The translations under genes were made by a program, and so were the position numbers. This document shows, piece after piece, positions 19,243 to 49,474 of a stretch of DNA of 64,000 nucleotides. Origin of the DNA: an uncultured Micavibrio sp. (lineage in GTDB: Bacteria > Pseudomonadota > Alphaproteobacteria > Micavibrionales > UBA1664); assembly GCA_964350795.1 (NCBI GenBank), contig CAYGLI010000003.1, positions 272-64,271 on the forward strand, in the 5' to 3' direction. The notes below the pieces were generated by a model that was not told the DNA's origin, made no database searches, and saw only the letters and a list, made by a program, of their open reading frames with translations. Every line of letters begins with the position of its first letter. Position 1 is the first letter of the stretch.

Positions 19243-19317
19243 GGGTTGTTAGCTCAGGGGTAGAGCACTTGCTCGACACGCAAGGGGTCACTGGTTCAAT
19301 CCCAGTACAACCCACCA
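19243..19317 (+). tRNA. tRNA-Val (anticodon GAC) with encoded CCA
   Basis: Hand-folded cloverleaf. Acceptor GGGTTGT/ACAACCC, D stem GCTC/GAGC, anticodon stem CTTGC/GCAAG with loop TCGACAC, T arm ACTGG-TTCAATC-CCAGT, discriminator A plus CCA. Position 33 reads C, not U. Confidence 0.8.
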
Positions 19318-19320
19318 TTT
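19251..19320 (+). repeat. attL (within the intact tRNA-Val)
   Basis: Identical over 70 nt to 25470-25539. Confidence 0.85.
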
Positions 19321-19416: not shown

Positions 19417-20412
19417 ATGGCGACAATACGTAAGATTAAGAGCGGTAAATTTGAAGTACAGATAAGACGCAAGGGCACTGTCCCAGTTAGCAAATCCTTT
19501 GTTAAGAAATCAGATGCCGAACAATGGGCTAGGCACATGGAAACCAAAGCAGATAGAGGCGATTTGCCGACTCCTGTTAAGGTTCTGGATAGTTATACTG
19601 TGAAAGATATAATCGAACGGTACAGGGACAACATAACCGTTAAAAAGCTAAGTGCAGACACAGAAACATACATTCTTGACGCCTTTCTCCGTCAGTCCAT
19701 ATCTAAGTTAAGTTTAGCACAAATAACAAGCTCCCACTTTATCAAGTACCGTGATAAGCGTTTAAAATCCGTCAAGGCAGGTACAATCAATAGAGAACTT
19801 GGAATTATTAAGCACGCTTTTGATATGGCAGATAGAGAATGGAATATTCCAATCCGTAACAATCCGCTATCTAAAATCTCAAAATTGAAAGTGAATAACG
19901 CCCGAAACAGACGATTAGTAACAGGTGAATATCAATTACTAATGGATGCGTTGGGACATACACGCAATGATTTGATAAAACCCATCATTAATTTTGCTAT
20001 CGAAACAGGAATGAGGCGAGGCGAGATACTGCGGTTAAAATGGAGTGATATTGATTATGATGCCAGAGTGTTATTTATACCGATTACCAAGAACGGACAT
20101 AGCCGTACAATTCCCTTAACTTCTAACGCAATAGGTATTTTACAGGGGCTAGAGGGGGAATATCACAACATTAATAACAAAGTATTTCCACTTAGTGGTA
20201 ATGCTGTAAAAATGGCTTGGCAACGGCTTGTAGAACGCTCAGGCATAAATGATTTGAATTTCCATGACTTACGACACGAGGCCATTAGCCGTTTTTTTGA
20301 ATCAGGTTTATCTGTTCCTGAGGTTGCTCTTATATCAGGTCATAGGGATTATAGAATGCTATTCAGATACACTCATTTAAAAGCTGAGGATGTTGCTGTA
20401 AAATTACAATGA
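19417..20412 (+). CDS. int: tyrosine-type site-specific integrase
   Basis: 331 aa. Catalytic pattern ETGMRRGEIL ... FHDLRHEAISR ... GHRDYRMLFRYTH (R, HxxR, H, Y). Adjacent to the tRNA. Confidence 0.9.
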   Translation: MATIRKIKSGKFEVQIRRKGTVPVSKSFVKKSDAEQWARHMETKADRGDLPTPVKVLDSYTVKDIIERYRDNITVKKLSADTETYILDAFLRQSISKLSLAQITSSHFIKYRDKRLKSVKAGTINRELGIIKHAFDMADREWNIPIRNNPLSKISKLKVNNARNRRLVTGEYQLLMDALGHTRNDLIKPIINFAIETGMRRGEILRLKWSDIDYDARVLFIPITKNGHSRTIPLTSNAIGILQGLEGEYHNINNKVFPLSGNAVKMAWQRLVERSGINDLNFHDLRHEAISRFFESGLSVPEVALISGHRDYRMLFRYTHLKAEDVAVKLQ

Positions 20413-20495: not shown

Positions 20496-21161
20496 ATGGC
20501 TAATAATAAACAACAAGATGATTACAAAAAGAAAAATGATGCCATGAAACTAGTGGCAGCAAGAATGAATCGAGCTGCGAAAGCAGAAGGGAAAAAAGCC
20601 GTTGAAGAGTTGAAAAAAATTAATCCAGATATGGCTGATTTAAAAATGTCATTAATTCCCAGTAATGTTTGCTTACCTTCTGCACAAATACCTTTTAAGG
20701 ACGTATATTTGAAAGTTGTTGATACGCTTGCAAGCAAGGAAGGGCTTACTAAAACACAAAAATTGATACTTGAGGAAATTCAAAATACTTATTTCTCAGG
20801 CATGGGAGTCATTAGCCCTAATGTGTGGACTAGAAAGCTAGTGCACTGGGCTGTAACTGAGGCACAAAAAAGATTGAATGCTAATATGGCTAAGCCAATC
20901 AATATTTTAGGATGCACGTCTCTTTCAGAAATCAGAATAAAAATGTTAGCCCATCAAAGCTATGGTCATGCCGTTATTCAGTACAGCGGTAAAATTGTAA
21001 TTAATAAACATCATGTAGTAGCAGGTAAAAAATCATTTAAAGTTATTGAGCGTGCCAATTCATATTATATACAAGTTCAAACGGGGGGAGGTAAATCTCA
21101 ATGGATACGTTTAGATTCTTTAATCTCATTATTAAGTAATCTAAAGCAAGAATATCTTTAG
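20496..21161 (+). CDS. hypothetical island protein (221 aa)
   Basis: Lys-rich N-terminus and no recognised motif. An inverted partial copy of the iteron core (TATATAGGGA, 20476-20485) lies just upstream of its start. Confidence 0.5.
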   Translation: MANNKQQDDYKKKNDAMKLVAARMNRAAKAEGKKAVEELKKINPDMADLKMSLIPSNVCLPSAQIPFKDVYLKVVDTLASKEGLTKTQKLILEEIQNTYFSGMGVISPNVWTRKLVHWAVTEAQKRLNANMAKPINILGCTSLSEIRIKMLAHQSYGHAVIQYSGKIVINKHHVVAGKKSFKVIERANSYYIQVQTGGGKSQWIRLDSLISLLSNLKQEYL

Positions 21162-21543: not shown

Positions 21544-22548
21544 TTAGGCTACTTTTTCATCATTTCTATTTTCATCTGTAATTCTTAAGGCAGACGAAAG
21601 TGATTTAGATATATGCCACATCATGACTGGTGGGACAGCATTTCCAAGAGCTTTATAATTTATTATTCTAGAGTTCGAAAGTTTAAATTTATCGGGGAAG
21701 GACTGTATTCTAGCAACTTCTCTTGGTGAAAACATACGGTAACGGTCTTTCTCCAATAAAACAGGGTCAGTGCTATTCAAGCTTACTTTCGCTAAATGTG
21801 AACTTACGGTATTGCATGGTTCGTTAATATCTTGGGCGCGCCCTTTATTCATAGTTTTGTAGTTTTTTGTTTTTAATAAGCCCTGAACTGCGCGATCACT
21901 AAAATAATACTCATCTTTAATATCTTTTTTATTTTCCAAAATATCCTTTATCGGGACAAATTTTTCTGTATGTGTTGCCTGAGGAAATGAAAAGTTAAAA
22001 GCATCTTCTGCATCACGAAACCCAACGATAAAAACTCTCTCTCTCTTTTGTGGAACTCCATATTCCTTAGAGTTTAGAAGTTGAAACCGAACGGTATAAC
22101 CACATTTTTCAAACTCTGATATTATCAACTTAAAGGCATCTCCTTTATTAGCAGACAGCAAACCCTTTACATTTTCAGCTATAAAACATCTTGGTTTTTT
22201 AACTTTTAAGATTCGGCACATTTCAAAAAATAATTTTCCACGGTCGTCTTTATAACCAAGTCTCTTAGGGTTTTGAGCAACAATAGAAAAGGATTGGCAT
22301 GGAAAACCTCCAATCATTATATCGTGCTCCATAACTTCATCATTAGTGATAGTCAGAACATCTCTAACTTCGCACTTATGCGAGAAATTTTGATTATATA
22401 TTGCGACCGCTTTTTCATCAAAATCAAATGCTTGTTTAATTTTAAATGGGTTTAGTGAATATTCTGTACCCAAAAAAGAAAAACCACCCTGTAGTCCTAA
22501 ATCCATTCCTCCACAGCCTGCAAATAAAGAAAACACGTTGTACGTCAT
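21544..22548 (-). CDS. DNA (cytosine-5)-methyltransferase (M subunit 1)
   Basis: Motif I FSLFAGCGGMDLG, motif IV GGFPCQSFS, ENV, QKRERVFIVG, RIQSFPDKF, GNAVPPVM. The ATG at 22548 overlaps the nuclease TGA (ATGA). Confidence 0.9.
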   Translation of the reverse strand: MTYNVFSLFAGCGGMDLGLQGGFSFLGTEYSLNPFKIKQAFDFDEKAVAIYNQNFSHKCEVRDVLTITNDEVMEHDIMIGGFPCQSFSIVAQNPKRLGYKDDRGKLFFEMCRILKVKKPRCFIAENVKGLLSANKGDAFKLIISEFEKCGYTVRFQLLNSKEYGVPQKRERVFIVGFRDAEDAFNFSFPQATHTEKFVPIKDILENKKDIKDEYYFSDRAVQGLLKTKNYKTMNKGRAQDINEPCNTVSSHLAKVSLNSTDPVLLEKDRYRMFSPREVARIQSFPDKFKLSNSRIINYKALGNAVPPVMMWHISKSLSSALRITDENRNDEKVA

Positions 22549-23987
22549 GATAAAACCTCTGCCCATTCACCTGATTGCTCCGTATACTTAATACTAACTC
22601 CATCTCTTGGCGTCATCTTAATTAAATCATTTTTGTATGCCGATACAGGATTTCGTATTATGAACAATTTTACACTTCCGTATGAAATCATAAGACGATA
22701 CACAAAATACAAATCTTGATAGGAATCTGCAGCCTGCCATTCATTCGGCGTCATGTGGAATGAGTAACTACTTAAATTTCCTTTGCTTACAGTAGTCTTA
22801 ACCTCAACATGAATATTTCGAAAATCGTCTTCTTCTCCTAAGAATGACTTAATATCAAATCCAACGCCAAATTGCTCAGGTATTTTTTGTATCAAATGAA
22901 TCAAATCCTCTCTACCTAACCCTGAAACTCTTATTTTTTCATGATTCAATATTATGGCTTCGCCAATATCCCCAATTTCTTTTGTTTTTAAGACACCATT
23001 TTTTTCTTTTTTGTCAGACAGAGTTTTCAGCGATCTTTTTATAATTGAGTTATCATCAGGCTCTTCAATTTCATCTGAAAGTATTAATGAAGATATATCG
23101 CTTTTAAATAGAGCTTCGTTAAGGTTCGTATTGATAAAATCAAACCATTGTGGTTGAAGCGTTTTAATATCTTCAATACTTAAATCTGCTTTAGTATACA
23201 AGACCTCATACTCTGGGAAAAATGTTGGTGTTTCTATATATGCATTAAAAGTTTCAAGATATTGCATTCTTGGATAATATTGATAATTGGGTTTCAGTTC
23301 CACTAAATCGGCTAACCCCATATAATCGAGTATATCACCTGCATAGCGAACAATATCTCCGCTAGTATCATAATCCACTGCTTCACTTCTATTTCTAATT
23401 AGTAGCTCAACCGTGTCTTTAGGACTCTGTTTTCCAGTTGTAACATCAAGATTATTAAAAATTAAATGAGTTGCCTCTGCTTTAGTTATCCCAAAATTCT
23501 TTTTTGTTTTTTGCCTTCCTAAAAGTAAAACTTGTAAAAGATAGCTCGTAGGATGAAATTTTATACCCTGTCGTATCATGTTAAGTGTTTCCTGTGGCTT
23601 AAGATGACCAGCTGGATATTGAAAATAATATAAAAAATATCTAAAGAACTCTATAAGGTCTTGATTTTCAGATAGCATTTCACAGAGCTTACTAGGCATT
23701 TTATCTGCTCCATCATATTGAAACAAACCAAACAATGCAGAAATCTCTGTCCTCCAATTCGCTATTGTTTTGTCCACTTTATTATAATTAGGAGGATACA
23801 TTTTGATAGCCTCATCTAACTTTAAATCGAATTCTTTTATATCAGTTCGGCCTATATTACAAACTTCATTAGCTATAAATAATAATACGCCCTCCACGTC
23901 ATTTTTAAAACGAGGCCTTATATGATGAATACGATAAGTGTTTTCGACATTATAGGTCATCAGCTTGTTCCAGTATTTGTTTTGCAA
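22545..23987 (-). CDS. putative restriction endonuclease with DUF3883-like PD-(D/E)xK C-terminal domain
   Basis: 480 aa. The C-terminus (GDIGEAIILNHEK...GFDIKSF...IHVEVKTT...FHMTPNEWQAA...YFVYRL) fits the DUF3883/NO VEIN-C nuclease-like pattern (D...EVK). It is sandwiched between two MTase genes and overlaps both. Confidence 0.6.
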   Translation of the reverse strand: MQNKYWNKLMTYNVENTYRIHHIRPRFKNDVEGVLLFIANEVCNIGRTDIKEFDLKLDEAIKMYPPNYNKVDKTIANWRTEISALFGLFQYDGADKMPSKLCEMLSENQDLIEFFRYFLYYFQYPAGHLKPQETLNMIRQGIKFHPTSYLLQVLLLGRQKTKKNFGITKAEATHLIFNNLDVTTGKQSPKDTVELLIRNRSEAVDYDTSGDIVRYAGDILDYMGLADLVELKPNYQYYPRMQYLETFNAYIETPTFFPEYEVLYTKADLSIEDIKTLQPQWFDFINTNLNEALFKSDISSLILSDEIEEPDDNSIIKRSLKTLSDKKEKNGVLKTKEIGDIGEAIILNHEKIRVSGLGREDLIHLIQKIPEQFGVGFDIKSFLGEEDDFRNIHVEVKTTVSKGNLSSYSFHMTPNEWQAADSYQDLYFVYRLMISYGSVKLFIIRNPVSAYKNDLIKMTPRDGVSIKYTEQSGEWAEVLS

Positions 23988-24981
23988 TAATTTCAGCCAT
24001 TAGAGGAGGGACAGCATTTCCAACTTGTCTATATTGACTCGTTTTAGAACCATAAAAAATAAAATTATCTGGAAATGATTGTAATCGGGCAGACTCTCGC
24101 ACTGTGGGAACCCTATTCCATTTATAATGAAAATGATGTCTATGCCCTGTGTCTATAGTATTGGACGGTTTTTCACTATTAAATCTTGTCCAAGCTATGT
24201 TTACTTTCCTCGTATCCTTCAGGTGGTCAGGCAAATTTTTATAATTCCCACCATCTGGAACTAACGCAATAATTGATTTAGTTTTGTCCGAGTGATTTGT
24301 TATTTCATGATTCCATATGCCTTTAGAGCCAATCCGCATCATCTTTTGATAGTCTGTATCTGGACTGGAATCATATAAATCACCATCATTTTTTGAGTTC
24401 TCTGGAAGGTCTGACAAAGCATCCTTAGAGGGCGTAAGAGGCTTTTCTATTGGGGCTATAATTATGCTTTTTCCATTTTTAGAACCAATAAAAAAAACAC
24501 GCCTTCTACTCTGTGGAACACCAAAATCTTTTGAATTAAGGATTTGATAACTAACCGTATAACCAAGATTCTGAATATCATGAATAATTTGATCTTTTAT
24601 TTTTCCTTTATCCATAGAAACTAAATTAGGAACATTTTCCATTAAAAAATATTTTGGTTTCAATGTCTCTAAAGTATGTAGATAGGCTTTATAAAGTGAA
24701 TTTCGGTCATCATTTGGATCTCTTTTTCCAGATATTGAAAAACCCTGACAAGGTGGGCCACCAATAACAATATCGACCCCTCTATATTTTTCTAAGTTTG
24801 GTATTGGCTTAGATAAGTCTGCAATGACACCCTCTGCATTATTGTGATTATTTACAAATGTAGTTATAGAATCTTTACAAGTATCAAAACCTGCCACGAC
24901 ATGAAAACCATTTCTTTCAAAGCCTTTTGATAAACCGCCTGCACCACAAAATAAATCTAATACCTTTTTAACCATGACCAT
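23950..24981 (-). CDS. DNA (cytosine-5)-methyltransferase (M subunit 2)
   Basis: Motifs LDLFCGAGGLSKGF, GGPPCQGFS, ENV, QSRRRVFFIG, TVRESARLQSFPDNF, GNAVPPLM. The variable (TRD) region is unrelated to that of M1. Confidence 0.9.
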   Translation of the reverse strand: MVMVKKVLDLFCGAGGLSKGFERNGFHVVAGFDTCKDSITTFVNNHNNAEGVIADLSKPIPNLEKYRGVDIVIGGPPCQGFSISGKRDPNDDRNSLYKAYLHTLETLKPKYFLMENVPNLVSMDKGKIKDQIIHDIQNLGYTVSYQILNSKDFGVPQSRRRVFFIGSKNGKSIIIAPIEKPLTPSKDALSDLPENSKNDGDLYDSSPDTDYQKMMRIGSKGIWNHEITNHSDKTKSIIALVPDGGNYKNLPDHLKDTRKVNIAWTRFNSEKPSNTIDTGHRHHFHYKWNRVPTVRESARLQSFPDNFIFYGSKTSQYRQVGNAVPPLMAEIIAKQILEQADDL

Positions 24982-25469
24982 ATTAGAAACAATTCATTGC
25001 TCCTTTGCAATATTATTGCATAAACTTACTTACTTTATACAAATAGTAAAAAATGTGATTGAGTTGATTTTTTAACGCAAATATAACTATCTCCATATAC
25101 ATAGAAATAATAAAATTAAGTGTATCTATTCCGCATATTTAAAAAGCGCCTAATGTATTCATAATCAAAAATTACAAATAACAATCGTGGCCATATCAAA
25201 AATATGACTTAAATTTTCGAGGGGGCTTTTATATATATAGTTTATTATAATTTCCCCCTTCGCCTACATCACAATAATAATCTATTATTTCTGGTACTCA
25301 AAAACAAGTATAACCTCTTTATTGTTAAGTTTTGCATCATGTGTCTCATAACTTCATCCACACTCTATCCACACTAAAGCATATATTAAACCTTGAATAA
25401 ATTAAGATGAAATAATATACTGACCGCTTAAAGGGCTGTTTAGTTGGTTTCTATTTCAGTCTGATACAA

Positions 25470-25539
25470 AGCTCAGGGGTAGAGCACTTGCTCGACACGC
25501 AAGGGGTCACTGGTTCAATCCCAGTACAACCCACCATTT
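25470..25539 (+). repeat. attR (3' 70 nt of tRNA-Val, no 5' acceptor arm)
   Basis: Identical to 19251-19320. The preceding bases differ (A vs T), so it is not a second functional tRNA. Confidence 0.85.
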
Positions 25540-25786: not shown

Positions 25787-26419
25787 ATGACACAGGGAAA
25801 CACAACAACACGATCACTCCGTGGTGATTTTAAAGGGGTCAGCATTTCACGTACTGCTGATGGAACATTAACAGTTGACGTTTCTGATCTTGGCGATGTT
25901 GATGTGACTGTTGTGACATCGGGTCACGGTCAAATTACGAAGCACGCGCCTGTTGAAGAACAAGATAATGTCCATACGGTTACAAAAGAAGCCTATAATA
26001 TTGGTGATGTTCTTCCCGATGGTTGGGTTGTTATGGGGCTGTCTAAAGACACAGGCATGCCATTCTCATGCGAACCTGAAGAAGGCGTATTGGATGGCTA
26101 TCAAGCATGGCATACAGGTGAAGACCATGCTGTAAAATTACGTGACGCTGGCAACCAAAATGCCCGTCAGCCAACGGACAAAGAATTAAACACAATCTGG
26201 GAAGATGTTGTTAAAGCGGGGCGTAATGACAATGCCAAGCTTAATACAAACGGTTCCAGACCGTACGGTAAATACTGGTCATCTACGCCGGATCCGAACA
26301 ACTCGGACGATGCGCGGATACAGTACCTAGGCGACGGCAGCAGGCTTTGGGACTATAAGGACGGCCGTCATGCGCGCGTCCGAGTTGTCCGCGACGAACC
26401 AGGTCTGAAGCTTGCGTAA
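25787..26419 (+). CDS. DUF1566 (Lcl C-terminal-like) domain protein
   Basis: 210 aa. ARQPTDKELNTIW ... YWSSTPDPNNSDDA ... ARVRVVRD matches the DUF1566 pattern (RLPT..EL, YWSST, vRcVR). Confidence 0.6.
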   Translation: MTQGNTTTRSLRGDFKGVSISRTADGTLTVDVSDLGDVDVTVVTSGHGQITKHAPVEEQDNVHTVTKEAYNIGDVLPDGWVVMGLSKDTGMPFSCEPEEGVLDGYQAWHTGEDHAVKLRDAGNQNARQPTDKELNTIWEDVVKAGRNDNAKLNTNGSRPYGKYWSSTPDPNNSDDARIQYLGDGSRLWDYKDGRHARVRVVRDEPGLKLA

Positions 26420-44182: not shown

Positions 44183-44821
44183 ATGATTGATACTGCTAGA
44201 CTAAACTTACTAATTACATTCTTAGGTGGAATTTTTATTCTTATCGGAACCATTTTTTCAGAAAATATAAGTAACTATTTCTTCCCTCCTAATGAATTAA
44301 CCTATGAAGTTATTGCGCACAGCGAAATAGATGACCTAACAATATTAAACTTAAGTATTGTAAATGGTGGACAGAAAGTTCAAAAAGATGTTTCTATAGA
44401 AATTAGTAAGAGTACAAAAGCTCCAAACAGCAAGGGCTTAATAGCTTATGAAAGCAATAAAGATATTATTGCTAAAGAAGGCAAATCAAAATACATTTTC
44501 TCAATAGAAAACCTCAAAATTGATGAAAGATTAAACTTATCTTTAGTATTAAATGAACCATATTTATTTTATAATGAATATTATGGTGGATTGCGCGATG
44601 TTAAAATTATATCAGATGAAAATGTTGCTCAGCAGGTAACAAAAAACAGCTATTTTGAAGATATAAAAACAGCAATATTTTGGATTGCTTTAGTTGGTTT
44701 TATTCTTTTGATAATACTAGGATTCATTTTGGAATTTATTTTAACACCAGAGCAGAAAATTAAAATGTTAAAAGATAACATAAAAAATAATCAAGATAAG
44801 ATAAAAAAACTAAAGCCTTAA
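44183..44821 (+). CDS. hypothetical membrane protein (212 aa), very AT-rich
   Basis: N-terminal TM (LLITFLGGIFILIGTIF) and C-terminal TM (IFWIALVGFILLIILGFILEFIL) with a Lys-rich tail. No recognised family. Confidence 0.45.
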   Translation: MIDTARLNLLITFLGGIFILIGTIFSENISNYFFPPNELTYEVIAHSEIDDLTILNLSIVNGGQKVQKDVSIEISKSTKAPNSKGLIAYESNKDIIAKEGKSKYIFSIENLKIDERLNLSLVLNEPYLFYNEYYGGLRDVKIISDENVAQQVTKNSYFEDIKTAIFWIALVGFILLIILGFILEFILTPEQKIKMLKDNIKNNQDKIKKLKP

Positions 44822-47579: not shown

Positions 47580-48440
47580 ATGGATAATATATCCCTCCTT
47601 CGTGAAAAATTCACTATTCGGGATTTAGGGATAGATTCAGGTGCCGTCATTGCACTTGGTAATCGTCTGCATATTGATCTGCCAAAACAAAAAACACCCC
47701 TCATCATTCGTGGTCATTCCATGCATATGACATTGCGATATGGTGCCGAAATTTTGAAACATTTATCCTATATCAGCCATGTCGAAGATATTAAGACCCT
47801 AATTGATTGGGAGGCGTTATGGGATAAATTAATTACACCCTTTGAAAAAGACAACGTGCCTGACACTTGGATTACACTTTATTATCAAGGTAAAATTATT
47901 TTTCAATCTGGGCGTCATCATATGTTTTTTGATATCATTGAGCAGACAGAATTTAAAAATATTGGGACGTCACAACAATACGATAAATCAATTGTTATGG
48001 CACAAAATGCCTTTCGCCAAATGGGACGCAGCGTGATGATTGAACAAGAATCACATGTTGGATTTGTGTTGGACGTCGACCCAAAGGAAATGCGATTTGC
48101 CATTATTTTGCGAACCCCCGAACAAAAGGCAACATTTATTGTCAGGATGTCTGATAACAAAGAATTTAAAATCAAACCTTATGATTACGTATGCATGCAA
48201 TTGGCGGCTGACTATATCGAGGGCATTAATATGGCGGTGAGATCAGGATTCATGGATCGGGACATCGCCTCAAATGTTATTTCACAATATTCCGAAGGGA
48301 TGAAATTATATCGCAAAATCCAAAAACGATTGAAATCAATGGAAATTGGTGTAGGTCAGGCAGAACGAAAATATACCATCAGATACCGTCCCGAAAAACC
48401 TGATTTCACGGTTATTCAAAAAGAATGCTCGGACAATTGA
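47580..48440 (+). CDS. hypothetical protein, tandem paralogue B (286 aa)
   Basis: Starts 2 nt after paralogue A and is colinear with it over its full length. Confidence 0.6.
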   Translation: MDNISLLREKFTIRDLGIDSGAVIALGNRLHIDLPKQKTPLIIRGHSMHMTLRYGAEILKHLSYISHVEDIKTLIDWEALWDKLITPFEKDNVPDTWITLYYQGKIIFQSGRHHMFFDIIEQTEFKNIGTSQQYDKSIVMAQNAFRQMGRSVMIEQESHVGFVLDVDPKEMRFAIILRTPEQKATFIVRMSDNKEFKIKPYDYVCMQLAADYIEGINMAVRSGFMDRDIASNVISQYSEGMKLYRKIQKRLKSMEIGVGQAERKYTIRYRPEKPDFTVIQKECSDN

Positions 48441-48970: not shown

Positions 48971-49474
48971 ATGGATAAATTAAAATCAGCCATTGTCGGG
49001 GCTTTGATGATTGGAACGGCATCAAATGCATTTGCAGACACTGTAAATCCAGACAATCCGTATGCTTATATTCCAGAGGAATTAGCAGAATTGCTAAATC
49101 AACTTCCCCCAGAAATCGCGATGGAAACCTATAACCACCTAACCGAATACACGCAATGTATCGAAAAAGGTGGTGCGGTTGACGCCGGTTCAACCGCAAT
49201 GAATATGATGAACATTATGGTAGAATATAGCTTAAATCAACTTAATGATTTTGTTAACTCTCCTGATGAATTCGAAACTATACCCATGCCATCTTATGAA
49301 GGAGCGGTGGTTTGTGCAAGCCAATATGAGGCATGGGGATTGTTAAATGGTGGCCGATTGGCCAACGCATTTTGTGATGAAACAGGACAAAGAATTTTAA
49401 ATTTCAGCCGTCCACTTGATGCGGATATCGGACTTCCCGCAAGACAAGCAGCACCGACTTGTAATGCATTATAG
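48971..49474 (+). CDS. hypothetical secreted protein (167 aa)
   Basis: Signal peptide (...GTASNAFA/D), four Cys, SD-like AAGGAAA upstream. Confidence 0.5.
   Translation: MDKLKSAIVGALMIGTASNAFADTVNPDNPYAYIPEELAELLNQLPPEIAMETYNHLTEYTQCIEKGGAVDAGSTAMNMMNIMVEYSLNQLNDFVNSPDEFETIPMPSYEGAVVCASQYEAWGLLNGGRLANAFCDETGQRILNFSRPLDADIGLPARQAAPTCNAL

Follow-up and report, generated by a model that had tools for sequence, protein, structure and literature searches.

The window analysed here is a stretch of 64,000 nucleotides (nt) from an uncultured Micavibrio sp. (assembly GCA_964350795.1, contig CAYGLI010000003.1, positions 272 to 64,271 of the forward strand). On a small genomic island, it carries a cassette of three intact minus-strand open reading frames (ORFs) with overlapping ends, in which a gene for a nuclease-like protein lies between two genes encoding 5-methylcytosine (m5C) methyltransferases (MTases) with unrelated target-recognition domains (TRDs). 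The middle protein is hereafter called R, and the MTases are named by their position relative to R; the upstream and downstream MTases are the M2 and M1, respectively, of a first-pass annotation of this DNA. The three genes very probably constitute a restriction-modification (R-M) operon of type IIS and of the BpuJI family, with the order M-R-M. The features of the cassette, with protein lengths in amino acids (aa), are the following:

23950..24981, minus strand: upstream m5C MTase, 343 aa (341 aa from the ATG at 24975); PF00145, 2.7e-76.
22545..23960, minus strand: R, predicted type IIS restriction endonuclease (REase) of the BpuJI family, 471 aa; PF11564 and PF13020, structural match to the BpuJI N-terminal domain (NTD), invariant D369/E386/K388.
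21544..22548, minus strand: downstream m5C MTase, 334 aa; PF00145, 4.4e-75; start at the ATGA overlap.
24982..25011, minus strand: conserved 5' leader of the cassette, likely ribosome-binding region; the 82% nt identity with the related locus L084, described below, reaches to ~25011.

The gene order and the overlaps reported in the first-pass annotation (38 or 11 nt, and ATGA) were borne out by the ORFs and the junction sequences. R can be read either from a TTG (22545..23987, 480 aa) or from an ATG (22545..23960, 471 aa), and it overlaps the upstream MTase gene by 38 nt in the first case and by 11 nt in the second (ATGACCTATAA). The stop of R and the start of the downstream MTase share ATGA, a 4-nt overlap, and the downstream MTase ORF extends over 21544..22566 or 21544..22548. 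For R and the downstream MTase, the ATG starts are likely to be the correct ones, because they are used in the source's gene calls (471 and 334 aa, respectively) and because the ATG-start Met of R aligns with Met1 of BpuJI. The cassette is tightly coupled by the 11-nt and 4-nt gene overlaps. The start of the upstream MTase was ambiguous: the start in L084 aligns with the ATG at 24975 of the window, which gives 341 aa, the length also of the cluster representative. An AAGGAG motif was observed 18 nt 5' of the annotated ATG at 24981, with a 4-codon mini-ORF in between (window 24975-24997). This mini-ORF (MNCF), located between the Shine-Dalgarno-like motif and the MTase start, was not kept in L084 and was dismissed as a chance occurrence.

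R was characterized, from the N- to the C-terminus, by a BpuJI_N recognition domain (residues ~1-285), a low-confidence linker (~286-325), and a PD-(D/E)XK nuclease domain (~326-471) that resembles the Holliday-junction resolvases of archaea (AHJR). The BpuJI_N family (PF11564) was matched by Pfam at 4.9e-85 over positions 1-278 of the 278 of the profile, corresponding to residues 12-282 of the 480-aa TTG form. A phmmer search of PDB sequences matched R to the BpuJI recognition domain (2vla/5hlt) at ~1e-17, and the best PADLOC match was the type II REase model (REase_II), at 4.3e-33 over the full length. An AlphaFold2 (AF2) model of R was built on 28 homologues, with a mean predicted local distance difference test (pLDDT) score of 76.5. 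In a Foldseek search with this model, the top matches were four BpuJI NTD structures, including 5hnf and 2vla (E 1.6e-15 to 2.8e-14), with target-normalised template modelling (TM) scores of 0.84-0.86 (0.85 for 2VLA). The N-terminal part of about 340 aa, which had initially been described as being of unknown fold, thus corresponds from residue 1 to ~285 to the recognition domain of BpuJI. The next match was the FokI-like nickase Nt.BspD6I (E ~1e-5), while weaker matches to the C-terminal domain included the Hjc resolvases 2eo0, 2wiw and 2wcz, D212, SPARDA nuclease domains, and NhoI.

The C-terminus of R also matched PF13020 (NOV_C, formerly DUF3883; Pfam) at 8.8e-11, and D369, E386, V387 and K388 were invariant among the 28 homologues, which agrees with the DUF3883-type nuclease-like domain with a D...EVK signature that had been noticed in the first-pass annotation. 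Several defence proteins of PADLOC, namely PD-T4-1, TmtA, and PDC-S36, share this NOV_C/DUF3883 nuclease (E 1e-15 to 1e-8), but their likeness is confined to residues ~304-460 of R, and they have neither the BpuJI_N domain nor the flanking pair of MTases. The assignment of R to the NOV_C defence proteins such as PD-T4-1 or TmtA was rejected, as these PADLOC matches span the C-terminal domain only. R is a full-length homologue of R.BpuJI, to which it is only 27-28% identical.

BpuJI is a type IIS enzyme of Bacillus pumilus, which recognizes the asymmetric site CCCGT (Sukackaite et al. 2007 NAR, PMC1874659). It is a dimer whose NTD binds the site as a monomer, and its C-terminal domain is a PD-(D/E)XK nuclease resembling archaeal Holliday-junction resolvases, which remains autoinhibited as long as the NTD is not bound to cognate DNA and which cleaves at variable positions near the site (PMC1874659). 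The catalytic role of D348, E367, and K369 was proven by alanine mutagenesis, and the system comprises one R gene with an m5C MTase gene on either side (PMC1874659). The DUF3883-type nuclease had been considered poorly characterised as an R partner; this view could not be maintained, since, for BpuJI, the catalytic triad is proven and the mechanism of activation was worked out in 2007 (PMC1874659). Crystal structures of the BpuJI recognition domain with DNA are also available (2VLA, 5HLT). In our data set, BpuJI itself is protein P0127 (462 aa, Bacillus safensis), and its locus, L086, encodes a 367-aa MTase, the 462-aa R, and a 350-aa MTase. The window cassette and L086 agree in their M-R-M order and orientation, in an 11-nt overlap of the upstream MTase with R, and in the two-domain build of R, in which a BpuJI_N recognition domain is followed by an AHJR-like D...EVK nuclease. 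Residues D369/E386/V387/K388 of R aligned with D348/E367/V368/K369 of BpuJI in an alignment of 238 R proteins, which is described below.

Both MTases were covered end to end by PF00145 and TIGR00675, and the motifs FxGxGG, PCQ, ENV, QxRxR, and GNAVP were present in both translations, so that the complete m5C motif sets reported earlier could be confirmed. The two proteins shared 31% identity overall and ~40% in the catalytic core, and their TRDs, located between motifs VIII and IX, were 16-18% identical within one locus, consistent with the earlier statement that these regions are unrelated. When compared with the BpuJI locus, the upstream MTase was 52% identical to its upstream counterpart (54% in the TRD) and the downstream MTase was 48% identical to its downstream counterpart (52% in the TRD), whereas the TRD identity between the upstream and downstream types was 16-19%. 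Based on these values, the MTases of the window are positional orthologues of the BpuJI-locus MTases, TRDs included. No Vsr-family protein was matched by Pfam among the eight proteins scanned in the 19.4-27 kb region, including all five island proteins, as had been stated before, and none was listed in the gene tables of related loci.

By analogy with BpuJI, the NTD of R would bind an asymmetric 5-bp site as a monomer, by means of two winged-helix/helix-turn-helix subdomains and an N-terminal arm, and binding to the site would lift the autoinhibition of the dimeric C-terminal nuclease. This Holliday-junction-resolvase-like PD-(D/E)XK nuclease, with D369, E386 and K388, would require Mg2+ and, once activated, would cut near the site, while each m5C MTase would methylate the cytosine-bearing site on one strand and thereby protect the host DNA. 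The earlier proposal of a type IIS-like module in which an asymmetric site is modified by two m5C MTases, one for each strand, was strongly supported by the homology to BpuJI and by the layout of L086. HgaI also uses two m5C MTases, and it had been cited as the pattern for this arrangement; the reading as a two-MTase system with an asymmetric site is retained, but BpuJI, and not HgaI, is the proper archetype. HgaI, FokI, and Nt.BspD6I resemble the window system in having an asymmetric site and a recognition domain that is separate from a non-specific cleavage domain, but the cleavage domain of R is of the NOV_C/AHJR-like type and not of the FokI type.

More than 2000 relatives of R were found, and relatives occurred in at least 282 species genomes. 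The best 120 relatives were all two-domain proteins of ~470 aa, publicly named only as 'DUF3883 domain-containing protein'. Host organisms included many Patescibacteria, as well as Gammaproteobacteria, Bacteroidota, Clostridia, Bacilli, Treponema, cyanobacteria, and one Bathyarchaeota metagenome-assembled genome. The BpuJI-type type IIS R-M family is therefore widespread but under-annotated ('DUF3883/NO VEIN domain-containing protein'). The R of the window belongs to a large sister clade of BpuJI (hereafter, the window clade), of which, as far as we could find, no description has been published. We compared 168 loci, 84 from each of the two clades (window and BpuJI). An upstream-type MTase, R, and a downstream-type MTase were adjacent and on the same strand in 141 of them; the 27 exceptions all corresponded to truncated contigs or frameshifted MTase genes. 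Two loci with an intact R contained a split MTase gene: in L085 (B. safensis GCA_040720855, 7389-8440) the downstream MTase was split into 153 and 125 aa, and in L087 (4882-5993) the upstream MTase was split into 174 and 151 aa. These splits could be sequencing errors or could reflect decaying systems with a supposedly lethal genotype.

To compare the R proteins of the two clades, we aligned 120 window-clade and 118 BpuJI-clade sequences. Forty-eight positions carried the same residue in both clades at a conservation of 90% or more; among them were the catalytic residues and the D1 recognition helix K-T-x-x-N-x-R-T-E-I, with its N67/N68. Conversely, 34 positions were fixed within each clade but different between clades. 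They clustered in two regions, the N-terminal arm and the D2 helix; the residues of the latter were S204, Y205, Q208, H209, I210, E212, and N215 in the BpuJI clade and G201, D202, R205, Y206, A207, D209, and D212 in the window clade. In BpuJI, the mutations N67A and Q208A each abolish the binding of DNA (cited in PMC9240713). In the window clade, N67 was kept, and the position of Q208 was occupied by an invariant Arg (R205).

A corresponding switch was found in the upstream MTase, in which 107 positions were identically conserved in both clades and only one was a fixed difference. This position, residue 281, lies in the TRD motif TIDTGH[R/N]HHFHY and was Arg in all window-clade loci (71/71) and Asn in all BpuJI-clade loci (61/61), so that it tracked the R clade perfectly across 132 loci. 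The rule also held in pairs of upstream MTases that were 82-88% identical across the clades (L030/L090 and L077/L168); such pairs suggest that either the gene was recently exchanged between CCCGC- and CCCGT-type systems or a single residue switched very recently. Downstream MTases fell neatly into the two clades, with fixed differences at 12 positions, including five in the TRD.

Asn and Gln are typical readers of adenine, as Arg is of guanine. Because the switches in R and in the upstream MTase both replace an amide residue by Arg, a change of target from CCCGT to CCCGC was predicted, and the CCCGC prediction was written down before site avoidance was tested. For this test, which was run blind, observed/expected (o/e) ratios were calculated with a maximal-order Markov model for all 512 strand-symmetric 5-mers, handling the cassettes and the host flanks of each clade separately, and confidence intervals (CI) were obtained by bootstrap.

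CCCGT was strongly depleted in the cassettes of the BpuJI clade (o/e 0.42, CI 0.30-0.54, versus 1.20 in the window clade), and also in their host flanks (o/e 0.67, CI 0.54-0.82, versus 0.97); in both sets it was the most BpuJI-clade-depleted of the 512 5-mers. The positive control thus worked, since the known site of BpuJI ranked at the top for its own clade. Reciprocally, CCCGC was the most window-clade-depleted of the 512 5-mers in cassettes, with an o/e of 0.38 (57 observed versus 151 expected, z = -7.7, CI 0.27-0.49) against 0.86 in the BpuJI clade, and it was also the most depleted 5-mer of the window-clade cassettes in absolute terms. In host flanks, its o/e was 0.76 (CI 0.61-0.89) in the window clade and 0.91 in the BpuJI clade, which placed it sixth among the window-clade-depleted 5-mers. 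Six-mer extensions of the site brought no consistent additional depletion, and the predicted site is therefore a 5-mer. The cassette of the window itself contained neither CCCGC nor CCCGT (zero occurrences of each), and counts over the entire 64-kb window (o/e 1.03 for CCCGT and 0.99 for CCCGC) were uninformative. In the pooled host flanks of L001-L168, the other strongly avoided 5-mers were CCAGG/CCTGG, GGACC/GGTCC, GCAGC, and GACGC. These are classic R-M sites, and the pooled-flank test therefore picks up restriction pressure in general.

Taken with the residue switches, these results indicate that the system of the window, as a member of the sister clade of BpuJI, probably targets 5'-CCCGC-3'/5'-GCGGG-3' rather than CCCGT/ACGGG as a consequence of coordinated switches. 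The retargeting would involve the replacement of Q208 by R205 in the D2 helix of R, that of N281 by R281 in the TRD of the upstream MTase, and the changes in the TRD of the downstream MTase. Relative to BpuJI, the window clade differs both in its fixed substitutions in the D2 helix and N-terminal arm (including Q208 to Arg) and in residue 281 of the upstream MTase (R281, not N281), as well as in avoidance statistics that favour CCCGC and not CCCGT. More tentatively, and on the strength of the same comparisons, a small set of coordinated substitutions may have shifted the target of the whole three-protein system from CCCGT to CCCGC throughout the sister clade, which extends over at least 282 species genomes, including many Patescibacteria. 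These substitutions would comprise a single TRD residue of the upstream MTase, the D2 helix and N-terminal arm of R (Q208 to Arg and its neighbours), and five positions in the downstream MTase TRD.

It seems unlikely to us that this BpuJI-family type IIS system has a site other than CCCGT and CCCGC, such as a longer or degenerate relative. The five fixed differences in the downstream MTase TRD and the many changes in the N-terminal arm and D2 helix of R leave room for more than one altered base, and specificity was approached only indirectly; however, CCCGC came first of all 512 5-mers in the differential test on cassettes, at a z of -7.7, and no six-mer extension was consistently more depleted. 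It is even less probable that the system is a true isoschizomer of BpuJI, with the site CCCGT/ACGGG and with clade differences that merely reflect neutral divergence. The 52-54% identity of both TRDs to those of the BpuJI locus would fit such an isoschizomer, as would the conservation of the D1 recognition helix with its essential Asn and the 82-88% identity of some upstream MTases across clades. Yet the window clade avoided CCCGC (0.38 and 0.76 in cassettes and flanks, respectively) and not CCCGT (1.20 and 0.97), with the reciprocal pattern in the BpuJI clade; Q208, essential for DNA binding by BpuJI, was an invariant Arg in the window clade; and residue 281 of the upstream MTase co-varied perfectly with the R clade across 132 loci. 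Lastly, a module that has ceased to work in restriction, in which R is decaying or silenced and both MTases survive or which acts mainly as an addiction cassette stabilising the island, is very improbable: R-M cassettes on small islands are known as stabilisers, the frameshifted MTase genes beside an intact R in L085 and L087 suggest decay within the family, and no clear promoter was found, but all three ORFs are intact with every catalytic motif present, the overlaps for translational coupling are kept, and the closest relative, at 82% nt identity, also keeps its three ORFs intact.

Several points weigh against a working BpuJI-type system retargeted to CCCGC. The k-mer counts were made in homologous cassettes and are not phylogenetically independent, the avoidance effect in host flanks was moderate, and neither site was avoided in the window outside the island (o/e 1.0-1.06), which fits a recent acquisition but lends no support to the prediction. 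The correspondence between amino acids and bases (Asn/Gln for A and Arg for G) is only a general tendency, and TRDs with ~50% identity to those of the BpuJI MTases would also fit an unchanged CCCGT specificity. Moreover, the fold match of the C-terminal domain of R to Hjc was weak (E 0.2-0.7), and a scan for promoters and terminators performed no better than on shuffled sequences (32 promoter-like sites versus 29.6 expected) and was uninformative.

The site predicted for the window system is already known from two other enzymes, FauI of Flavobacterium aquatile and SmuI of Sphingobacterium multivorum, which are type IIS enzymes with the site CCCGC(4/6). The FauI system also contains two m5C MTases, and the window clade includes genomes of Flavobacterium, Flavobacteriaceae, and other Bacteroidota. 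FauI cuts at the defined 4/6 position, with ~15% slippage, whereas BpuJI cleaves at variable positions near its site. We found nothing usable in the literature on the FauI genes or on a CCCGC methylome tied to the BpuJI-type family. One apparent example of a 'CCCGC/GCGGG' motif (PMC8112702) was rejected, as it is really a CCGC motif with an extra C that arises from cleavage constraints.

Nothing at this locus is categorically new, as the recognition fold and the nuclease have already been characterised in BpuJI. Broader interest attaches only to the coordinated change of target from CCCGT to CCCGC in all three proteins, a computational prediction that we consider reasonably probable. If it is true, this would be a natural and traceable case of a restriction enzyme and two separate MTases changing their specificity together, and it could serve as a guide for the engineering of type IIS specificities. 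The prediction bears on how multi-protein R-M systems can change their specificity without killing the host. If FauI and SmuI belong to the window clade, the specificity would already be known, perhaps implicitly in REBASE, and only the co-evolution map would be new.

The cassette lies on a 6.2-kb island whose only contents are an integrase gene, an orphan ORF, and the M-R-M cassette. The other features of the island are the following:

19243..19317, plus strand: tRNA-Val(GAC), integration target at the left island end; ARAGORN, and Rfam RF00005 at 64 bits.
19251..19320, plus strand: left copy of a perfect 70-nt direct repeat (att-like); repeat search, 100% identical, spacing 6219 nt.
19417..20412, plus strand: tyrosine recombinase/integrase, 331 aa; PF00589 at 2.9e-29, Int_N, and phrog_1 integrase at 3.4e-62.
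20496..21161, plus strand: orphan ORF, 221 aa; matched only itself among 5.8 billion proteins.
25470..25539, plus strand: right copy of the 70-nt repeat, with a partial tRNA-Val (3' part), at the right island end; Rfam partial tRNA at 37.8 bits, model positions 9-63.

The island thus exhibited the characteristics of a tRNA-integrated element, with an intact tRNA gene, a direct repeat of its 3' part, an adjacent integrase gene, and an atypical composition (GC content of 0.32-0.36 versus 0.41-0.48 in the flanks). The surrounding DNA was ordinary chromosome, with genes for CheA, an FlhF-like protein, a response regulator, Mdh, and phosphomannomutase. The nearest relative of R, P0002, shared 86% identity with it and was encoded on a JGI metagenome contig, L084. 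Positions 2886-6330 of L084 were 82% identical at the nt level to ~21567-25011 of the window, and this identity was limited to the M-R-M cassette, from ~30-60 nt 5' of the first ATG through the last stop codon. In L084, the cassette adjoined a different integrase, with 28% aa identity to that of the window. As these related cassettes stand beside integrases that are only 28% identical, the cassette moves between mobile backbones. It travels as a unit, and the locus illustrates cleanly how an R-M cassette passes from one integrase backbone to an unrelated one.

The orphan ORF at 20496-21161 had no match in Pfam, NCBIfam, PADLOC or PHROGs, and its single-sequence AF2 model was unusable (pLDDT 42). 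The intergenic region that separates this ORF from the 3' end of the downstream MTase gene contained an imperfect 33-nt direct repeat (21309-21341/21401-21433), with 79% identity between the copies, which are 92 nt apart. To the right of the island, the first gene (25787-26419, plus strand) encodes a protein of 210 aa with an Lcl C-terminal-like domain, scoring 33.6 bits against a Pfam cut-off of 34.9 bits. Further patches of low GC content were detected at 44-45 kb (0.32) and 48-49 kb (0.35). ORFs without a Pfam match in the low-GC patches were located at 44183-44821, 47580-48440, and 48971-49474, and these may be other horizontally acquired genes.

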